Part shown: in pieces, positions 3,396 to 64,000 of the stretch
How positions within the stretch are numbered: the stretch's first letter is position 1
How the letters are laid out: each line of letters begins with the position of its first letter
Assembly (NCBI GenBank): GCA_045600525.1
Contig: JAZRYC010000010.1
Location: 406 to 64,405, forward strand
Length of the DNA stretch: 64,000 bases
From: Bacteroidales bacterium
GTDB lineage: Bacteria; Bacteroidota; Bacteroidia; Bacteroidales; WCHB1-69
Direction of reading: 5' to 3'
Notes under the pieces: model-generated
Seen by the model: only the letters and a program-made list of their open reading frames with translations
Databases searched by the model: none
What the model was told of the DNA's origin: nothing
Translations under genes and position numbers: made by a program

Positions 3396-6300
3396 TTAAA
3401 AGTCCGTTCCAATGGAGAAGAGAAACATTCCTTTCTTATTGGAAATTTTAAGATCTTCAACACCCCAAGCATAGTCAAAGCGAAGAAAATAACCAAACAG
3501 AGAGCAACGCAGACCGAGTCCGAAACCTCCCACGAAGGGATCCACCTGCCGCTTCACCATCACCGAAATCGGTCCTGAAATAATATACCGCGTATAAAGG
3601 CAATTATCCTCCGAATAGGGCGTTAGACCCGTCCACGCCGTGCCTATATCGCCAAAGACATTCAATTGCAGGGAATTCAACAGTTCAAAGGAAAGATTGT
3701 GACCAGCAATCAATTGGACGAATGGAACGCGAAGTTCCGCGCTAAGTAGGGCAAAGGAAGTACCATTGCGAATATTCTGTTTGAAGCCGCGCATATTGGT
3801 GGCCAAAGTCTGGTAGGCATAATTCTTCTGTTGATCCACCCATATATCACTGTCGAACTTAGCATTGATCCAATTATCCACTCCACCGAGGAAATAAACC
3901 AATCGCGCAGAACCAACATTCATGGACGCAGCACCTCGAACGGCAAAAGTCATATTTCTATACAACCTAAAGGAATGCCTCACATCTATTCCCGCAACAA
4001 AGAGATTCTGCGTCTCCCTTTCCGCGCGTTGCTCATATTCTCCAAAGATCTTCAATTTTGTACCACGCCATAAATTGGTATAAAGTTCCTTGGAAGAGTC
4101 AAACACATATTCTAACTTAACACCCGCCCATAAATGGCGCGTTTCAGGTTCCTGTAGAGACTGATCGCTCAAAGCGGCCACTACATTCGCCTCATACCTT
4201 CCCTTGAAAGTGAGGCGCAGACTACTACATTTGTCAAAGGGATATTTCAAAATATAGAACACACTGTTCGAACGCTGCTTGTAAACGCGATCGCTTATGG
4301 AAGAACTAATGGATTGTCTATAGAGGACAATCTGGCGATCTAACCTGCGGGCAAGATTTTCATAACTGAGCATAAACTCATAGCTACCCAAATCCAACCC
4401 AATTCTAAATCCGCCCGTAACCCTGTAATCCTCAAAGAGATCATTGATTCCCAGCATAAACAGGGCATTGAAGCCAGTATTCAAATAAATCGGTGAAGTA
4501 CCTCCTTCAAATTGCTGATACGAGGTATTTAGAAAACTAAAATCTGCCTGTGTGATAACCTTATTTATTGAATATTGTACACGATAACCTCGGCCAACCG
4601 GAATAACCAATTGATTGCTGTCTTCCTGCATCTGGAGCGTATCTGACAGCGTATCCTTCCTTTGAAAGGAAAAATCTTCGCGCATTTGTCTTTCCAGCAA
4701 AATACTCTTATGGAAAGGAGAAGAGACTGGCGTTTTCCTGACATCCAGACGCAAAGGCGACTGGAAAACACGTTTCACATTCTGTTTTTGGAAAATATCC
4801 GCCATCATCTGGCGAGCAGGATCGTAAGCATGTTCAAGAATCTGGAAACTGCCATCAGTCAAAGGACTGAACTGCGCATAATAGGCATAATGTATTGCTG
4901 TGTCAATCCTACTGATGGTGCTGTCAAAGTGTGCCTCATAACGGTTTAGCACCCCATCCCTATCGCTAAGGAAGACCACTTGCCGGTCACCCACCCTCTG
5001 GGCGGCATATTCATCGGCATATGGTGTCTGCGACACGCGAAGCAACGAACTGTCCTTTTTTGCATACGAATATAGAAAAAGATCGTATGAAGATTGTGCG
5101 TCAGCTTCCCGAAAATCATCTTTCAATAAAATGGAATCCTTTGAACGATTAGAAGAAAATACAATTTGTCGTTGATGATCTATGAAAACTGGAGCATAAT
5201 CATCGTAAAAGTCATTTGTGATATTTTGAAAGGAGCGTGAAAGAAAGCTATAGATAAATATGTCGGATTGTCCATTCTTAAAACCAGAGAAAAGCATCAT
5301 CTTACCGTCATCGGAATAATGCCATGAGGTAATCTTCTCAACATCCACCAAAAAACGTTTCCCCCATTTTCGTTCCGACACATTATAGGGATAATAATAG
5401 CAATGCCCCTTGTCCTCAATCGTCATGCCGAGAATGGAATCCTGAGGATGCCAAGCGAGCAGAGGAAATGAGAAGTCCGGATTATCCTCTGTTTTCTGAT
5501 ATCGGCGAAAAATGCAACGAGGCTTGTCTTGGTCGCCCGAAGAAAGCCAGACCTTAATTTGTCCGGCCTCATTTGTAACAAACGCATATGCGCCGTCATG
5601 GGAAAAGCACAATTGGCCATAGTCGCGTTTCTCCCGCGGACGTTCAATCAATTCTTCTCCTTGGGGCTTATCTTTCTGCGTATCTTGATAATACATCACG
5701 CAGTAATACTTATACCAATTGAGCATCAGCATTCTATAGGGTGTCCCCGTTCCATAATAAAAACCCTTTTTAAGGCTCTTCGTTTGCCGAGTGGCGTATA
5801 GGATACGGGCAATGGTCTGGCGACCATAAGTATCAACCACATACTTCCAAAACGAATGTCCGGCATAGGTCGCATCACGAGGGGACAATTCCTCTAATTC
5901 CACATAACGTTGAGATAGAATTCCATCCTTCACGTAAGCATCTAATTCACTATTCCAAGATTCGCCGACATAGGATGCCAAACCGCTGTAATACCAGCTC
6001 GGGATATTCATCAGATACTCGTATGCCATATTCTTCCCGACGGAGGCGCCCTGCACCATCCAATGCGCATATATATTCATGATGCCGCTACGGAGCATTC
6101 GATCTAAATGGGCATGGTTCCCGTCAAAATAGAGGTATATCTTCGTACCATATATATTAGTAACACCGCCTTGGTTGTAAAAGTCATCATCGTCATACGC
6201 AAAATTGGATTCGCGAAAATCAGCCTGGGTATTATAAACAATGATTTGGATCTTCTTCTTCGATGAATATTGTAGTAATTGCTCTATTTCCGCAATAACC

Positions 6301-6700: not shown

Positions 6701-7267
6701 ATGGCAACAAGAATCAGATTACAAAGAAGAGGTAAAAAGAATCAGCCTTTTTATCACGTTGTAATTGCGGATGGTCGTGCACCACGTGACGGACGTTTTA
6801 TCGAAGATCTTGGTACTTACAATCCACTGACCAATCCTGCAACATTGAACATCAATTTCGACCGTGCTCTGTATTGGTTAGAGGCAGGTGCTGCTCCTTC
6901 TGATACGGCTCGTGCGATTCTCAAACGCGAAGGCGTTTATTTGATGAAACACCTCAAAGGTGGTATCGCCAAGGGTGCTCTCACCGAAGCTCAGGCTCAA
7001 CAGAAATTCGAAGCTTGGAAACAGGAAAAGAACAGCAAACTCGGCAACGTAGTTCGCGAAGAAGCTGAAAAAGCCCGCAACATCAAGAAGGAACGTTTGG
7101 CTGCTGAAACAAAAGTAAAAGAAGCCATGTCCGCTAAAATCGCTGCAAAGGCTGCTGAAATCGCCGCTGCTGCTGCAAAGGCTGCTGAAGAAGCTGCCGA
7201 AGCCGCTGCTGCTGAAGTTGAAGCAACAGAAGCTCCCGCTGCAGAAGAAGCTCCTGCTGAAGCATAA
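6701..7267 (+). CDS. rpsP: 30S ribosomal protein S16 with an Ala/Glu/Lys-rich C-terminal extension
   Basis: MATRIRLQRRGKKNQPFYHVVIADGRAPRDGRFIEDLGTYNP is canonical S16. Roughly the last 85 aa are low-complexity (AAKAAEIAAAAAKAAEEAAEAAAAE). Confidence 0.95.
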   Translation: MATRIRLQRRGKKNQPFYHVVIADGRAPRDGRFIEDLGTYNPLTNPATLNINFDRALYWLEAGAAPSDTARAILKREGVYLMKHLKGGIAKGALTEAQAQQKFEAWKQEKNSKLGNVVREEAEKARNIKKERLAAETKVKEAMSAKIAAKAAEIAAAAAKAAEEAAEAAAAEVEATEAPAAEEAPAEA

Positions 7268-57416: not shown

Positions 57417-57503
57417 CCATCAAATAAGATAATAACATGGCTTTGCCCATTAAGCATAATGCTCTTATGACAAAGCAAATATTAACCTATAAAACACAAC
57501 ATT

Positions 57504-57824
57504 ATGATTTTAACAACAACTCCCACCATTGAAGGAAAACAAATCGTAGAATACAAAGGCGTCGTGTTTGGCGAGGTCGTTGCCGGCGTGAACTTTATGA
57601 AAGACATTGGCGCCAGCCTCCGCAACATCTTCGGCGGTCGCTCCCAATCGTACGAAGGCGAGCTGATAGATGCACGCAAAAATGCCATGGAGGAGATGTC
57701 CCAACGTGCCGCTCAATTGGGTGCCAACGCCGTAGTGGGCATTGATATCGATTACGAAGTGCTCGGTGCTGATAACGGAATGATGATGGTCATTGCCTCC
57801 GGCACGGCAGTTGTGGTTCGTTAA
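57504..57824 (+). CDS. ybjQ: YbjQ family (UPF0145) protein
   Basis: [20 protein letters not shown]...GGRS.SYE......R..A.EEM...[15 protein letters not shown] is collinear with E. coli YbjQ. Confidence 0.78.
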
Positions 57825-57870
57825 AACACCTTTGATTGCTATTTTGTAATTTTATGAAAATAAATTATTT

Positions 57871-60816
57871 ATGATGATATCTAAACAACAATTAGCCGCA
57901 AAGTCATTCGCTGAGGAATGGAAAAATCGTGGAGACGAAAAAAGTGAAACGCAATTGTTTTGGATGTCGCTGCTACAGTATGTGTTTGGGATCGTTGAGC
58001 CGCAGAAGTTCATTGAGTTTGAAAAGCGTGTGCAGCTCACACACGTCAGCTTTATCGATGCGTACATCCCGGCTACAAAAGTACTGATTGAGCAAAAATC
58101 TTTTGATATTGATTTGCACAAAGGCTACAAGCAGAGTGACGGTTCGATACTTACGCCTTTTCAGCAGGCCAAACGCTATGCTAATGAACTGCCTTATTCG
58201 ATGCGTCCGCGTTGGGTAGTGGTAAGCAATTTTCAGTCGATTTTGGTCTATGATATGGAAAATCCGAATGGAGAGCCTTTTGAAATTCTTCTAGAAAATC
58301 TTGACAAAGAGTATTATCGGCTCTCATTTCTGACCAATACCGGAAATGCCCATCTGCAAAAGGAAATGGAGGTGAGTATCAAGGCTGGTGACTTGGTGGG
58401 TAAAATTTATGATGCGCTGCTACCGCAGTACAAGGATCCCACCAGCGCCGAAACCCTCCACAGCTTGAATATGCTCTGCGTGCGTCTGGTGTTCTGTCTG
58501 TATGCCGAAGATGCGGGCGTTTTCGGGAAACGCAGTATGTTTCACGACTATATGTCGGAATTCGATGCCCGCAATTTCCGCCGCGCGCTAATTGACTTGT
58601 TTAAAGTTTTAGACACCAAAGTTGAAGACCGAGACCCGTATATGGATGAAGCGCTATCGGCCTTCCCGTATGTGAATGGCGGTCTGTTTTCGGATTGCAA
58701 CGTCGAGATTCCGAATTTCACCGACGAACTGCGCGCGCTGATTTTGGAAAAGGCGTCCGACGATTTCGACTGGAGCGAAATCAGTCCCACCATTTTCGGT
58801 GCCGTATTCGAATCGACATTGAATCCGGTGACGCGCCGTTCGGGCGGTATGCACTATACCTCTATCGAAAACATCCATAAAGTTATCGACCCGCTGTTCT
58901 TTAATGATTTGCGCCGCGAGTTGGATGAAATAAAAGCGGAGAAAGTAGGAAAATTGCAAACGAAAAAGGCAGCGGAATTCCAGATGAAACTTTCAAAACT
59001 GAAATTTCTGGATCCTGCCTGCGGAAGTGGCAACTTTCTGACGGAGACTTACCTGTCGCTGCGCCGTTTGGAAAATGAGGCCATCCGTCTTCAGACTAAG
59101 GGACAGGTACAAATGGGTTTGGAAGAAACCAATCCGGTGAAAGTCTCCATTCATCAGTCCTATGGCATCGAAATCAACGATTTCGCGGCAGATGTCGCAA
59201 CCACCGCATTGTGGATTGCCGAGAGCCAGATGCTGAAGGAAACCTCCACCATCGTGGACTTCGATTTGGATATGCTACCGCTAAAAACCTACCACAATAT
59301 CAAGAAGGGCAACGCGTTGCGCCTGTCATGGACCGAATGGCCTATCGCTGAAAAGCGTACAGCCATCATTGCAAAGCAAACCAATGTCTATCCATTACAG
59401 GATGCACCGGTAACAACTGCCAATGAACCGACCGTTCAATACAATAATATTGATTTATACAGCGACGAAATCAATCTGCATCCCAAGCGTAAAGAGCCCG
59501 CGACATATCACGTAGATTTTGATTACATTATGGGAAATCCGCCGTTTGTTGGTGCAAGATTGATGTCGGAAAGCCAAAAGCAAGATATGTTGGAAGTCTT
59601 CGGAAAGAAGTGGAAAAACATTGGGAATATGGATTACGTTTCTGCTTGGTATTATAAAGCGGCAAAAGTTATGTTGAGTAGCGATAGTCATACGGCTTTG
59701 GTTTCCACCAACAGCATAACGCAGGGCGAGCAGGTTGCCAATCTTTGGAAACCGCTGTTTGAAAAATTCGGCATTCATATCGATTTCGCCTATCGAACTT
59801 TCCGATGGGACAGCGAATCAACATTAAAAGCGCACGTCCACTGCGTCGTAATTGGATTTTCGAGATGCGAAAGCGAAACGAAAACGATATTTACAGAGTC
59901 ATCTTCCCTTCAAGCACAAAATATTAATCCGTATCTAATTGATGCGGAAACAGTTTGGATTGAAAGTAGAAAATATCCATTATGCGATGTGCCGGAAATT
60001 GGTATAGGAAACAAACCTATTGATGGTGGCAATTATTTGTTTACAGAAGAAGAAATGCGTGCCTTCATTAAGAAGGAACCCAAATCAGAACCTTATTTCA
60101 AAAAATGGATAGGTGCAGATGAATTTATCAATGGTTGGTACCGATATTGTCTTTGGCTGGGAGATTGTTCCCCCGCAGAAATTCGTTCAATGCCAGAATG
60201 CTTCAAACGAGTTCAGGCTGTACGCGATTTCCGCTTGGCCAGCAAGAGCGAGGGAACACGTAAACTTGCCGACAAACCTACTCGCTTTCACGTAGAAAAT
60301 ATGCCAAAGGGGAATTATATTGTTATTCCAGAAACATCTTCTGAAAAAAGAAAATATACACCTATCGGCTTTTTGACACCAGATATTCTTTGTAGTAATG
60401 CAATAAGGTTAGCACCCAATGCAACCCTCTATCATTTTGGCATTCTGACTTCCAATGTCCATATGGCGTGGATGCGTGTGGTTTGCGGCCGGTTGAAATC
60501 TGATTATCGCTATTCCAAAGATATTGTATATAACAATTTTCCATGGCCTACACCGACAGACGAACAGAAGGCTAAAATTGAGCAAACGGCGCAAGCCATC
60601 CTGGATGCGCGGGCAAAATATCCGGAAAGTTCGTTGGCCGACTTGTACGATGATGTCACAATGCCACCCGAGCTGCGCAAAGCCCATAAGGAAAATGATC
60701 ATGCCGTGATGGCTGCCTACGGTTTCAATGCAACAATTCTATCCTCTAACAATGAATCTCAAATTGTTGCTGAATTATTCAGACTCTATCAAACAATAAT
60801 AGAACAAGAACAATGA
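57871..60816 (+). CDS. MmeI-family type IIL (IIG) restriction-modification enzyme, single-chain endonuclease + N6-adenine methyltransferase + specificity domain
   Basis: N-terminal PD-ExK-like motif FIDAYIP...VLIEQKS as in MmeI (D-x9-ExK). MTase motif I FLDPACGSGNFL and motif IV NPPFVG. 981 aa. No separate methyltransferase gene nearby. Confidence 0.78.
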   Translation: MMISKQQLAAKSFAEEWKNRGDEKSETQLFWMSLLQYVFGIVEPQKFIEFEKRVQLTHVSFIDAYIPATKVLIEQKSFDIDLHKGYKQSDGSILTPFQQAKRYANELPYSMRPRWVVVSNFQSILVYDMENPNGEPFEILLENLDKEYYRLSFLTNTGNAHLQKEMEVSIKAGDLVGKIYDALLPQYKDPTSAETLHSLNMLCVRLVFCLYAEDAGVFGKRSMFHDYMSEFDARNFRRALIDLFKVLDTKVEDRDPYMDEALSAFPYVNGGLFSDCNVEIPNFTDELRALILEKASDDFDWSEISPTIFGAVFESTLNPVTRRSGGMHYTSIENIHKVIDPLFFNDLRRELDEIKAEKVGKLQTKKAAEFQMKLSKLKFLDPACGSGNFLTETYLSLRRLENEAIRLQTKGQVQMGLEETNPVKVSIHQSYGIEINDFAADVATTALWIAESQMLKETSTIVDFDLDMLPLKTYHNIKKGNALRLSWTEWPIAEKRTAIIAKQTNVYPLQDAPVTTANEPTVQYNNIDLYSDEINLHPKRKEPATYHVDFDYIMGNPPFVGARLMSESQKQDMLEVFGKKWKNIGNMDYVSAWYYKAAKVMLSSDSHTALVSTNSITQGEQVANLWKPLFEKFGIHIDFAYRTFRWDSESTLKAHVHCVVIGFSRCESETKTIFTESSSLQAQNINPYLIDAETVWIESRKYPLCDVPEIGIGNKPIDGGNYLFTEEEMRAFIKKEPKSEPYFKKWIGADEFINGWYRYCLWLGDCSPAEIRSMPECFKRVQAVRDFRLASKSEGTRKLADKPTRFHVENMPKGNYIVIPETSSEKRKYTPIGFLTPDILCSNAIRLAPNATLYHFGILTSNVHMAWMRVVCGRLKSDYRYSKDIVYNNFPWPTPTDEQKAKIEQTAQAILDARAKYPESSLADLYDDVTMPPELRKAHKENDHAVMAAYGFNATILSSNNESQIVAELFRLYQTIIEQEQ

Positions 60817-60875
60817 AAAAAGAAAAAATAGATTTCATGACCATATTAAACCTTGCAGAAATTTATCAAGATCAG

Positions 60876-60913
60876 TAGGGGTCAGATAGTATAGAACTTT
60901 ATCCTGAACCCTA
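60876..60913. other. imperfect hairpin TAGGGGTCAG-(18 nt)-CTGAACCCTA
   Basis: 10-bp arms with one mismatch. The left arm is identical to the first 10 nt of the array at 63721. No T-run follows. Confidence 0.5.
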
Positions 60914-60934
60914 ATCCCTAACCCCTAACCCCTA
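60907..60934 (+). repeat. telomere-like heptamer array, C-rich strand: AACCCTA ATCCCTA ACCCCTA ACCCCTA
   Basis: Four tandem 7-mers. The last base is the A of the ATG at 60934. The minus strand reads GGGG-TTA-GGGG-TTA-GGG-ATTA-GGG. Confidence 0.85.
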
Positions 60935-61587
60935 TGAAAGTAATCATCACTGGAACAACGGGCTATGTTGGCGAAGGCGTGCTGCTCTGCTGCCTCGAAC
61001 ATCCCGAAATAGAGAAAATCCTGAGTGTGTCGCGCCGCCCGACCAACATCGAACATCCCAAACTGGAAGAACTGATTGTGGATGACTTTATGAATCTGCA
61101 AACTGGTGACGCGCGCTTGGCCGGGTACGATGCGGTGTTCTTTATCGCCGGCATCACCAGCGTGGGCACACCCGAGGATGTTTATCGCAAAATCAGTCAG
61201 ACGATTCCGCTGCACTTTGCGGAAATTCTGCCCGACAAAGAGCAGATGACCTATATCTATCTGTCGGGCGAAGGCACCAACGCCAATGGGAAATTGGCAT
61301 GGCAGAAAATCAAAGGCGGCACGGAGAACGCGCTTTTCGCGATGCCCTTCAAACACGCCTTCGGGTTCAGACCCAGCATTATGCGCCCGCACCCGAAGCA
61401 GAAAACCCGCAAGTCGTTCCAGATTGCCAGCCGCATCCTATATCCGCTGATGTGGCCGCTGTGCCAGTCCAACACGATGCAGGAGGTGGCCGACGCGATG
61501 ATTTGCTGCTCGAAGTTCGGATATGAAAAACGACATATTTCCGTTCGTGATATCCGGAAGTTGTCCAGAGATTTGAAAAAGAAGTGA
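60934..61587 (+). CDS. NAD(P)H-binding (atypical SDR/epimerase-like) protein
   Basis: Rossmann motif MKVIITGTTGYVGEGVL. 217 aa. Confidence 0.68.
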   Translation: MKVIITGTTGYVGEGVLLCCLEHPEIEKILSVSRRPTNIEHPKLEELIVDDFMNLQTGDARLAGYDAVFFIAGITSVGTPEDVYRKISQTIPLHFAEILPDKEQMTYIYLSGEGTNANGKLAWQKIKGGTENALFAMPFKHAFGFRPSIMRPHPKQKTRKSFQIASRILYPLMWPLCQSNTMQEVADAMICCSKFGYEKRHISVRDIRKLSRDLKKK

Positions 61588-61607
61588 TACTTTTAAATAA
61601 AAACGCT

Positions 61608-62291
61608 ATGAACGAAGAATGTTTGATTTGCCAAGCTCCCTTGGAATATCTTAACGAAGACGTGGAGATGGAGTGTGTGCTTTGCCATAAGAAGGTGCTG
61701 TCGAAAACACGTTGTGTAAACGGGCATTTCGTATGTGACGATTGCCACACCCGCGGTTTGGCCACCGTGATAAGCATTTGCCTGAACGAAAAATCCCGAA
61801 ATCCTATAGAGGTGATGAACCGCCTGATGTCGCAACCGTTCTGCCACATGCACGGCCCTGAGCATCACGTGCTGGTCGGTTCCGCTTTGCTGACTGCCTA
61901 CAAGAATGCCGGCGGAGATATTGACCTTCCCAAAATGCTGGTGGAAATACAGAGCCGTGGCCGGCAGGTGCCCGGCGGCGTATGCGGTTTCTGGGGTGCG
62001 TGTGGCGCAGGTATCAGCAGCGGAATGTTCGTCTCCCTGATTTCCGGTGCCACGCCGCTCAGCGTGGAGCCGTGGGGGCTCGCCAACCGCATGACCTCCC
62101 AATCGCTGAATGCAATCGGCGAAATCGGCGGCGCACGCTGCTGCAAACGTGACTCTTATCTCGCTATCCTTGCCGCTATCGACTTCGTGGCGGAACATTT
62201 TGGCGTTCAAATGGAAAAATCCAACATTTTTTGTCAGTTTTCTAACAAAAATAACCAGTGCATCGGAAACAGATGCCCCTTTCATCCGTAA
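61608..62291 (+). CDS. Cys-rich protein, DUF5714-like (zinc-ribbon N-terminus)
   Basis: CLICQ...CVLCH...CVNGHFVCDDCH is a Zn-ribbon. Further Cys motifs are CGFWGACGAG and GGARCCKRD. The ORF track starts at GTG 61584, which overlaps the upstream stop; the first ATG is 61608. The family assignment is from memory. Confidence 0.45.
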   Translation: MNEECLICQAPLEYLNEDVEMECVLCHKKVLSKTRCVNGHFVCDDCHTRGLATVISICLNEKSRNPIEVMNRLMSQPFCHMHGPEHHVLVGSALLTAYKNAGGDIDLPKMLVEIQSRGRQVPGGVCGFWGACGAGISSGMFVSLISGATPLSVEPWGLANRMTSQSLNAIGEIGGARCCKRDSYLAILAAIDFVAEHFGVQMEKSNIFCQFSNKNNQCIGNRCPFHP

Positions 62292-62311
62292 ACCTTTTAA
62301 TAAACAATATA

Positions 62312-63718
62312 ATGAAAAAAACAATCCTTTTTTTCGTGCTTTTAGTGATGGTCAACTTCGTGTTCGGCCAAGTTAACATTCCTGTCGGTTTTGACGAGCG
62401 TGCCGACCTGATGAGTCTCATCTTTCGGACTGCAGGGGCCAATGAGTACGGCTTCTGTTATTTTGATGAATATGTGAATAATCTGAAGCCCTATATCAAT
62501 GAAACCGACGAGGTGGTAAAGCTGGCACAGAAATACCGCGAGGAAACAGACATCTCGTATGACGCTGTGGCTGATTTCGCTCTCCATCTCAAAATTTCTG
62601 AGAATGGGAAGTTTACCTTGGATGACGCTTTCCAAGATGGCATTGACGAACGTTGGACGGAAGAACAGAAGCAGAATTTCTTGGCCGCGTTGAACGAATA
62701 TTATGCAAAATCCAATTTTCATCAGGGCTACATGAAAAATGCGGAAATCCAGCAGAAAGCGGTAGAAGCATTTAAACAGGATGTGTGTCAGAAGATTGAT
62801 TTGGAATGGTTTGACAAGTTCTTTGGAGCCAACAACAATCCTCAATTCCGCATTGTGCTGAGCATCCTGAATGGTCCCAATAACTATGGCTGCAGTGCGC
62901 AGATGAAAGATGGAAGTTTCCTGCTCTGTCCGTTTATCGGCAGCTATTCTATGGACAATTCGCAAAATCCGGTTTACAGGGTAAATGAGGTTCTGCCGAT
63001 TGTCATTCACGAATTCTGCCATGCCTATTGCAATCCGCAGATTGAGCACTTTTGGCCGGATATGGAAGGGAAATCTACGGAAGTCTATAATGCTAACGCG
63101 CTGACATTGACTCAGATGGCATACGGAGATGCCAAAACAATGATGTGTGAGACTTTTGTTCGTAGTTGCGTGATTCGCTATTTCCTGAATCACTATCCGC
63201 AGATATCCGTTGACGACCTGCTGTCGGAAGAAGCAGATTTCTACCTCACACGCACGATGGTGGAGTCTTTGGAAAAATACGAGCAGAACCGGGAACAATA
63301 TCCGACGATTGAAAGTTATATGCCGCAGTTGATCAATGACATCAACCAATTCAATCTTAAAAACTTCCTGAAAGAACAGAAAAAAGAATTAAAGGCCAAC
63401 GCGCACGTGATGAAATGTAGCATCAAAAACGGTGCGAAGAATGTCCCTTCCGGAGAAATAGAATTGAAGATTATCTTCAGCAAGCCGATGCAACAAATGA
63501 TTGCCTTGGGATATGGCAATTCTGATGGTGTTTTTTTGGAATTTGATAAAAATATTGAACATACTTTCACATGGAGCAAAGACTGTAAAACCACCACGAT
63601 TTATCTGGATTTGCAGCCGAACACGCACTACTCTTTCAGCATATTAGGAGGCTTGTACCGCACGCAGGACGGACATACCGCCGGCGAAACCCAGTTTTAC
63701 GATTTCTGGACCAAGTGA
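62312..63718 (+). CDS. secreted DUF4932-like putative metallopeptidase with a C-terminal Ig-like (SbsA/Big_5-like) domain
   Basis: Start trimmed to MKKTILFFVLLVMVNFVFGQ (signal peptide). HExxH motif HEFCHAYCNP. The C-terminal 100 aa or so are beta-rich. Confidence 0.5.
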   Translation: MKKTILFFVLLVMVNFVFGQVNIPVGFDERADLMSLIFRTAGANEYGFCYFDEYVNNLKPYINETDEVVKLAQKYREETDISYDAVADFALHLKISENGKFTLDDAFQDGIDERWTEEQKQNFLAALNEYYAKSNFHQGYMKNAEIQQKAVEAFKQDVCQKIDLEWFDKFFGANNNPQFRIVLSILNGPNNYGCSAQMKDGSFLLCPFIGSYSMDNSQNPVYRVNEVLPIVIHEFCHAYCNPQIEHFWPDMEGKSTEVYNANALTLTQMAYGDAKTMMCETFVRSCVIRYFLNHYPQISVDDLLSEEADFYLTRTMVESLEKYEQNREQYPTIESYMPQLINDINQFNLKNFLKEQKKELKANAHVMKCSIKNGAKNVPSGEIELKIIFSKPMQQMIALGYGNSDGVFLEFDKNIEHTFTWSKDCKTTTIYLDLQPNTHYSFSILGGLYRTQDGHTAGETQFYDFWTK

Positions 63719-63720
63719 TA

Positions 63721-63776
63721 TAGGGGTCAGGGTATAGGGTATAGGGTTTAGGGTATAGGGTTTAGGGTTTAGAATT
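63721..63776 (+). repeat. telomere-like heptamer array, G-rich strand: 8 x TAGGGTW (TAGGGGT CAGGGTA TAGGGTA TAGGGTT TAGGGTA TAGGGTT TAGGGTT TAGAATT)
   Basis: Starts 2 nt after the stop at 63718. There are seven G3-4 tracts separated by 3-4 nt. It is the reverse-complement motif of the array at 60907-60934. Confidence 0.9.
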
Positions 63777-63811
63777 GGAGAATGATTTTACTTGTCTAAT
63801 TAACAAAAACT

Positions 63812-64000
63812 ATGATTCAAAGTTACAAAGATTTGATTGTTTGGCAAAAGGCCATGCAGATGACTGAAATGGTATATTCTATGGTGAAAAAACTTCCGAA
63901 GGAGGAAACGTATGCATTGAGCGACCAAATGAGGCGCGCGGCTGTGTCGATTCCTTCGAACATAGCGGAAGGCTACGGGCGGAACTCAAAGAAAGAGTAT
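63812..64000 (+). CDS. four-helix-bundle protein (23S rRNA intervening-sequence protein / Avd-like family), 5' part only, truncated by the window end
   Basis: Not in the ORF track because no stop lies inside the window. My translation is MIQSYKDLIVWQKAMQMTEMVYSMVKKLPKEETYALSDQMRRAAVSIPSNIAEGYGRNSKKEY, which carries the family hallmarks (DLxVWQKA, LxxQxxRAAxSIxxNIAEG). Confidence 0.75.
   Translation, partial: MIQSYKDLIVWQKAMQMTEMVYSMVKKLPKEETYALSDQMRRAAVSIPSNIAEGYGRNSKKEY

Follow-up and report, generated by a model that had tools for sequence, protein, structure and literature searches.

Genes for small four-helix-bundle (4HB) proteins of the S23p family (PF05635/TIGR02436) were first found within intervening sequences (IVSs) of 23S ribosomal RNA (rRNA) genes (PMC4990558), in agreement with the initial annotation of the DNA analysed here. 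IVSs bearing such an open reading frame (ORF), as in Coxiella burnetii and Leptospira, combine the PF05635 ORF with stem-forming complementary termini and upstream tandem heptamers of strain-variable number, occur sporadically among strains and show evidence of horizontal transfer (PMC4990558). The Coxiella IVS, which has a 28-bp terminal stem, carries two to three tandem GACAGAT heptamers upstream of the S23p ORF, in a number that varies among strains, and its 5' cleavage by RNase III has been mapped to the first repeat (PMC4990558). We compared these systems with a 64,000-nt stretch from a Bacteroidales bacterium (contig JAZRYC010000010.1, positions 406 to 64,405; hereafter the window), at whose 3' end a 4HB ORF follows a tandem heptamer array. 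On balance, this 3' end probably represents a 4HB accessory cassette with inverted heptamer arms, lying between co-directional genes, forming an IVS-like stem and exchanged horizontally. In contrast to the 23S IVSs, the element is located between protein-coding genes and has long heptamer arrays on both sides, and RNase III cleavage is known for the Coxiella IVS only. While IVSs occupy helix 9, 25 or 45 of 23S rRNA, this element adjoins a DUF4932 gene and, in relatives, a GNAT gene.

Two further groups of repeats resemble parts of this arrangement. Xanthomonas and Nostoc contain arrays of GGGAATC or GGGGA(C/T)T heptamers that form G-quadruplexes (G4s) in vitro, with 70-75 inverted pairs per Xanthomonas genome (PMC4692102). 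Similar to our arrays, these and the cyanobacterial short tandemly repeated repetitive (STRR) sequences are tandem heptamers of variable copy number between aligned ORFs, no more than about 50 nt from stops or starts; the Xanthomonas/Nostoc repeats also form convergent (inverted) pairs with a G-rich strand able to form G4s (PMC4692102). That paper treats them as G-quadruplex-forming simple repeats, and the parts of its text and supplements that were searched make no link to 4HB genes. One of its supplementary tables does list a GGGAATC array that extends across the start of XCC0516 (PMC4692102), which is the 4HB protein of PDB entry 2GSC and therefore an independent published example of such an array. 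Direct TAACTGA repeats are described from marine Beggiatoaceae and also from some Cyanobacteria and Bacteroidetes, with a proposed role in translational regulation (PMC4679880). They end at or 1 nt ahead of start codons, as does a C-strand array of the window (60903-60934), their reverse complement TCAGTTA contains a YAG core like that described below, and contigs end in them (PMC4679880). Unlike our element, they are direct repeats with a single inverted repeat reported, and the text of that paper mentions neither S23, 23S nor a helix bundle. A full-text literature search, with subscription journals mostly outside its reach, retrieved no paper tying the 4HB family generally to inverted heptamer arrays. 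Thus, the component parts have been described before and the general context rule outside rRNA genes was not found in the literature, although an earlier description is possible.

In the window, the 5' arm of the element is a G-strand heptamer array on the forward strand (63721-63776), which starts 2 nt past the TGA of the DUF4932 gene. It consists of seven good units of the type TAGGGKT/CAGGGTA (63721-63769: TAGGGGT, CAGGGTA, TAGGGTA, TAGGGTT, TAGGGTA, TAGGGTT and TAGGGTT), followed by a degenerate TAGAATT (Tandem Repeats Finder score 67-87). A leader (63777-63811), ~90% identical to that of relative L083 over 63778-63837, separates the array from the ATG of the 4HB ORF (63812-64000, forward strand), of which the window end leaves the first 63 codons. 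These 63 residues score 87.7 bits against PF05635 (cut-off 33.8) and 79.5 bits against TIGR02436 (cut-off 24), placing the protein in the family. Sequence and profile matches thus bear out the initial annotation, which had a 10-mer, TAGGGGTCAG, open a long G-strand array ahead of a four-helix-bundle ORF. As also annotated, the 10-mer is shared with a second site: the window has just two exact copies (60876-60885 and 63721-63730), with ~0.12 copies of a given 10-mer expected per 128 kb of two strands by our own arithmetic. Allowing at most one mismatch gave seven matches versus 2.2 expected, five of them inside the two arrays, and these left and right arrays are the sole runs of at least three GGG/CCC at 7-nt spacing in the 64 kb. 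With seven G3-4 tracts and 4-nt loops (63721-63769), the right array is of the G-quadruplex type, defined as at least four tandem intergenic units with a G3+ tract, and this G arm could form a G-quadruplex.

Two close relatives, L083 and L001, carry the element with both of its arms, each in the gene order DUF4932, G array, leader, 4HB ORF, C array and GNAT acetyltransferase. The L083 ORF is 98.4% identical in DNA to that of the window over the readable 189 nt and has a full length of 127 aa, whereas the same ORF in L001 carries an internal deletion and yields a 102-aa product. The L083 orthologue matches PDB entries 2GSC (E 5.9e-22) and 2RLD (E 8e-10), each deposited with five chains. In both relatives a C array lies across the 3' end of the 4HB ORF, taking in its final codons and stop; the array contains CTGAACCCTA, the complement of the start of that copy's own G arm. 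In L083, the C array (ACTAACCCCAAATCCCTGAACCCTAAACCCTAAAA) encodes the final residues and stop codon of the ORF and ends 10 nt ahead of the next ATG. The initial annotation had taken the right array for the 5' arm of a loaded element and predicted a C-strand array close to the ORF end; the complementary array of L083 and L001 supports the former and matches the latter, the window's own copy being expected beyond 64000. The G arm comprises seven units in the window, about four in L001 and three to four in L083, all at the same position, and the cassette measures ~460-490 bp in the relatives. In the RNA fold predicted for the whole L083 element, the arrays pair around the ORF in the minimum-energy as well as the centroid structure (minimum free energy (MFE) -123.4 kcal/mol, z -3.31), and none of 100 shuffles folded as well. 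This relative therefore has complementary termini enclosing the ORF, as seen for the stems of IVSs. A second heptamer array of another unit type (ATTGACA TTGACTA ... TTAGCTT) extends in L083 from the GNAT stop to the contig end (4224-4268). Because most 4HB database entries are truncated at contig ends, as is this L083 array, such arrays break assemblies.

The same site is empty in at least 13 related loci (L089-L101; GNAT protein 94-97% identical), which share the order YbjQ, epimerase-like, DUF5714, DUF4932, 9-nt spacer, GNAT and patatin and lack a 4HB match, a heptamer array and an MmeI gene. Their spacer between DUF4932 and GNAT is TTTTAAGTT, indicating that the 4HB cassette replaces these 9 nt and is accessory. 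Its presence in the window, L083 and L001 and its absence from L089-L101 amount to the sporadic distribution typical of IVSs. Compared to L089-L101, the window has two insertions, namely an MmeI gene with the left array pair between the YbjQ and epimerase-like genes, and the 4HB cassette between DUF4932 and GNAT. In L091, L094 and L097, which have no MmeI insertion, the epimerase-like gene lies 17 nt past YbjQ, and a remnant of this old spacer (TGTAATTT...) persists upstream of the MmeI gene in the window.

Sequence identities change abruptly at the element boundary. Between the window and L083, the 98.4% identity of the 4HB ORF compares with 85% for the adjoining DUF4932 gene. A more distant relative, L084, has a like element directly after the epimerase-like gene, and here the 4HB ORF is 94% and the epimerase-like gene 80% identical to the window. 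Because the 4HB ORF is more alike between lineages than the adjoining host genes, with the step between element and host gene falling at the array, the comparison points to a recent horizontal exchange of the element between lineages. Paralogues within a single locus are only 62-78% identical, i.e. old. In L084, the epimerase-like ORF continues into the G array as far as a TAG (4600-4614); the host gene thus takes its final codons and its stop from the array.

We scanned with a 4HB alignment, using one genome per species, and recovered at least 593 relatives, of which the best 80 loci were examined. These came from Bacillota, Bacteroidota, Acidobacteriota, Planctomycetota, Pseudomonadota, Cyanobacteria, candidate phyla and others; the family as a whole, clustered at 50% identity, numbers 35,424 clusters, and 17,357 of these reach E <= 1e-10. 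When the 150 nt upstream of the start were compared with the 150 nt around the stop, inverted arms exceeded every local control (~60 placements of the same geometry per locus) in 55 of 78 evaluable 4HB genes. In a census of tandem repeats, period 7 leads with 306 rows, any other period having at most 106, and 48% of the heptamer arrays lie within 200 nt of a 4HB match, a zone that makes up 6.7% of the sequence. Recurrence of array pairs elsewhere, which the initial annotation had anticipated, was found among 87 sources: the 76 inverted heptamer pairs divide into 49 around a 4HB ORF, 23 without an ORF and 4 others. Likewise, 4HB genes on viral contigs of IMG/VR are accompanied by arrays on both sides (19 of 34 evaluable genes) or on one side (12 of 34).

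The heptamer unit itself varies by locus (TAGTGGT, TAGACTT, CAGTGGG, CAGTTGT, TAGGCAA and others). Alignment of the units from random starts nevertheless gave a shared core, N-Y-A-G-K-R-R, with 3.65 bits, whereas 200 shuffles of the units gave 2.58 +/- 0.12 and at most 2.97, and AG occurs in 43 of 48 units (29 expected). In this they differ from the Xanthomonas repeats, since most units here are incapable of forming G4s and the Xanthomonas consensus unit (PMC4692102) has no AG core. Arms have a median length of five units, and, read on the ORF strand, the upstream arm is richer in G than in C in 42 of the 49 loaded elements. The elements are co-directional with both neighbours in 34 of 44 cases, and the upstream array begins a median of 3 nt past the upstream ORF, the downstream array stopping a median of 14.5 nt ahead of the next ORF. 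Together, these orientations and distances show that elements span operon spacers from stop to start codon. Stop codons within the units (TAG, TAA) occur in the window and are used in its relatives, where the 4HB ORF ends within its C array. As a general rule, in-unit stop codons did not hold up: 27 of 49 upstream units contain one, compared to 45% of random heptamers of the same composition.

Individual loci show variations on this theme. In L075 (5782-5898 and 6383-6481) and L082 (5921-6001), complete small array hairpins flank the 4HB genes on one or both sides instead of a single split stem, a variant layout of the same parts. That heptamer arrays can expand greatly is shown by L064, where ~30 units (6944-7152), CAGTGGT at first and drifting to CAGTCGG and TAGTGGG, make up an array at a distance of 620 nt from a 4HB gene.

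ORF-less pairs exist as well, and the initial annotation had read the left site of the window as such an empty stem. In the 23 empty pairs the arms are separated by spacers of 11-100 nt, and the G-rich arm leads in 20 of the 23. Where empty and loaded elements occur in one locus, their unit types are closely similar (mean circular distance 1.44, versus 3.06 between loci). Owing to their strong folds, their G-first polarity and the unit type they have in common with the loaded element of the locus, the proposed family of empty and loaded members holds good as a class, of which the left element of the window is not a typical case but a poor one. As annotated, this element is a degenerate G remnant followed by a C-strand array; a 6-nt spacer lies between the two. 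Its vestigial G arm (60876-60896, forward strand; TAGGGGT CAGATAG TATAGAA) is identical in L083, and its C-strand array (60903-60934, forward strand; CCTGAAC CCTAATC CCTAACC CCTAACC CCTA) provides with its final A the A of the ATG (60934) of the epimerase-like gene. The order of unit variants in the C array differs in L083, and the array is absent from L084 and L091-L098.

As a stem, the left element is only weakly supported. A 13-bp imperfect hairpin is possible (TAGGG-TCAG-ATAG with TTAT-CTGA-CCCTA; MFE -11.9 kcal/mol, z -2.9 against mononucleotide shuffles, compared to a median z of -6.4 for empty hairpins at other loci), but in an 80-nt context z is 0.09 and three C units remain unpaired. 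No 4HB coding relic was found beside the left array (score 17 versus a null mean of 15), nor was a G array found at the left end of the MmeI insertion. The left element is thus better described as a decayed, asymmetric, ORF-less array pair, located where an MmeI gene of separate acquisition has its 3' end. An ORF of 21 codons (60815-60880; MKKEKIDFMTILNLAEIYQDQ), which spans the MmeI stop and terminates at the first heptamer's TAG (60876), is probably meaningless.

The comparisons above show the anatomy, placement, accessory status and pairing potential of the right element; its behaviour in the host is proposed to be as follows. The element would be transcribed together with its neighbour genes, and its arms would pair into a long stem enclosing the ORF, which would bring the upstream stop and the downstream start close together. 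By analogy with the ORF-bearing Coxiella 23S IVS, which serves as the experimental anchor for the RNase III and stem inference (PMC4990558), this stem is probably a substrate of RNase III, and the insert would be cut from the host transcript with little harm.

Several observations weigh against this reading. The window's own 3' arm is unseen, as the sequence ends at 64000, and among 82 4HB genes from the various loci, arrays could be detected on one side only in 24 and not at all in 10. At the junctions of filled versus empty sites neither a target-site duplication nor a clean insertion scar was seen, and DUF4932 differs between the two kinds of site in its stop and its final two codons. By DUF4932 distance the window is an outgroup, and ancestral presence followed by a single loss is therefore compatible with presence and absence alone. 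The arms themselves show no bias towards pairing in sense RNA. Mismatches that are G·U pairs in sense RNA number 36, those that are G·U only in antisense RNA 63 (p 0.009), and arm duplexes are slightly stabler as antisense RNA (30 versus 18, p 0.016). G·U asymmetry was thus not found as proof of a sense-RNA stem, the trend being slightly opposite. Since A·C mismatches outnumber G·U on the sense strand (63 versus 36), a role at the level of DNA is possible, as is some copying process by which the arms stay alike.

Such a DNA-level role would have the arrays form cruciforms or single-stranded DNA hairpins, in the case of the window G arm also a G-quadruplex, and act as hot spots of slippage or recombination with the 4HB gene as a passenger. 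The missing G·U signature would fit, as would the variable copy number of the arrays among relatives (7, 4 and 3-4 units), the contig breaks at arrays and the two independent strain-variable insertions in the window, both of which end in arrays. The seven G3 tracts with 4-nt loops of the window G arm are also in line with it, since GGGAATC arrays form G4s in vitro (PMC4692102). However, G runs are missing from most unit types (TAGACTT, TAGTCAT, CAGTTGT and others), and DNA structure alone leaves unexplained both the strict polarity relative to the ORF and the placement at co-directional stop and start codons. We regard this explanation as unlikely. To a similar degree we doubt that the arrays are binding sites of the 4HB protein, whereby about five YAG heptamers would wrap a toroidal pentamer in the way the trp leader wraps around the trp RNA-binding attenuation protein (TRAP). 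Consequences would be autoregulation or action on empty hairpins, with the complementary arm competing for the same strand. The YAG core kept across phyla and the median of five units per arm speak for such candidate sites, and so do the five-chain PDB relatives 2GSC and 2RLD and the homopentameric S23p of Xanthomonas (PMC4990558). The family is moreover related to Avd of diversity-generating retroelements, and Avd binds nucleic acid. On the other hand, similarity of the proteins is uncorrelated with similarity of their heptamer units (rho -0.03), and only pairs of proteins at least 70% identical share units; unit type tracks the locus or genome, not the protein. Furthermore, four units are preferred in Xanthomonas arrays (PMC4692102).

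The initial annotation had offered another explanation, in which a mobile, visibly GC-richer cassette of three genes (60934-63718) is bracketed by the C array (60903) and the G array (63721) as inverted repeats. The two arrays are indeed 79-83% complementary over 33-39 nt. The GC content of the block is marginally higher than that of the whole window (47.6% versus 45.9%), slightly more so in its first 1.3 kb; "visibly GC-richer" is overstated, as local values (0.44-0.52) lie inside the range found elsewhere in the window. Comparison of strains, the check that the initial annotation had itself named, refutes this explanation, because the three genes and GNAT are syntenic without arrays in the at least 13 related loci L089-L101. 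This arrayless synteny identifies 60934-63718, on present sequence comparisons, as three ancestral host genes and no cassette. In addition, the 4HB element of L084 lies directly after the epimerase-like gene, a C-first order is contrary to the usual topology (G-rich arm first in 20 of 23 empty and 42 of 49 loaded pairs), and each of the two arrays belongs to a separate insertion, leaving a bracketed three-gene cassette hardly conceivable. We retain the IVS-like 4HB cassette as the preferred reading of the locus.

Two established classes of mobile or diversifying elements were also considered. Like MITEs (miniature inverted-repeat transposable elements), insertion sequence (IS) elements and the repetitive extragenic palindromic sequences and bacterial interspersed mosaic elements (REP/BIME), the 4HB elements are small and intergenic, have inverted termini, vary in presence among strains and occur as ORF-less hairpin copies. 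In contrast to these, the sequence of the arms varies among elements, no target-site duplication was seen, and neither a transposase nor a REP-associated tyrosine transposase (RAYT) lies in or beside the element. A transposon or MITE with terminal inverted repeats was rejected as an identity, as the junctions show no duplication, the arms differ and the sole ORF is the 4HB gene. With Avd, the protein shares a homologous four-helix-bundle fold. However, it reaches only weak matches to the bAvd/DivGenRetAVD profiles, far below the cut-offs (NF033474, 27.4 bits versus 80; PF22296, 24.7 versus 40), and no reverse transcriptase adjoins the 4HB gene in L083 or L001, whose neighbours are DUF4932 and GNAT. 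The protein was therefore not assigned to Avd. PADLOC returned no defence-system match for it.

The remaining genes of the window's 3' end, all on the forward strand, fit the strain comparison. The YbjQ-family gene (57501-57824; 86% DNA identity with L091 189-512) is the ancestral upstream neighbour of the epimerase-like gene. It is followed by the insertion (57825-60875, the region extending to 60932) with the MmeI-family type IIG restriction-modification gene (ORF 57871-60816), which is strain-variable and has the left array pair at its 3' end. The epimerase-like (60934-61587), DUF5714 (61611-62291) and DUF4932 (62312-63718) genes are the ancestral, syntenic host genes. About half of the NCBIfam model for MbdU, a metal-binding double selenoprotein, is matched by the DUF5714 protein (E 3e-39, under the cut-off), which contains many cysteine motifs. 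Between the epimerase-like and DUF5714 genes, L083 has an extra 86-aa ORF (843-1103) with a 21-nt tandem repeat (AAAACGCACATAGCTGA...) that is absent from the window. Exact database look-up of three window proteins gave no identical record, and the window could not be extended by scanning metagenomes with the DUF4932 protein, for which the relatives obtained were all just 31% identical. Across the whole window no Rfam family reached its gathering score, hence no rRNA was detected; no family matched the arrays or elements, apart from one spurious miRNA-hairpin match (E 0.023). Scans for sigma-70 promoters and intrinsic terminators gave nothing exceeding chance.

Taken together, we regard the finding as real and the initial hypothesis as largely right, the proposed mechanism being argued from the Coxiella precedent. 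The 4HB (S23p, TIGR02436) family is among the largest small-protein families of no known function, so that a rule describing its genomic context is of use. By this rule, heptamer arms in inverted orientation have a common core and a fixed polarity, and they abut precisely on the stop codon of one co-directional neighbour and the start codon of the other. For annotation, the rule explains why 4HB ORFs enter repeats and take their stop codons from them, and why neighbour genes may end within an array, such as the epimerase-like gene of L084. It also offers experimental handles in arm pairing, RNase III cleavage and the binding of YAG heptamers by the pentamer. Tentatively, and with considerable reservation, PF05635 genes might be viewed as the cargo of a very large, phylum-spanning class of IVS-like mobile cassettes with self-complementary heptamer arms built on a YAG core. 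Such cassettes would settle in operon spacers and now and then in rRNA helices; their arms and ORF-less footprints would account for the intergenic heptamer repeats known from separate reports, among them the STRR of cyanobacteria, GGGAATC of Xanthomonas and TAACTGA of Beggiatoa; and the pentameric 4HB protein may recognise the arrays or help to propagate them. If true, ORF-bearing 23S IVSs, the heptamer repeats of Xanthomonas, cyanobacteria and Beggiatoaceae, and the assembly breaks at 4HB genes would all reflect one kind of element.

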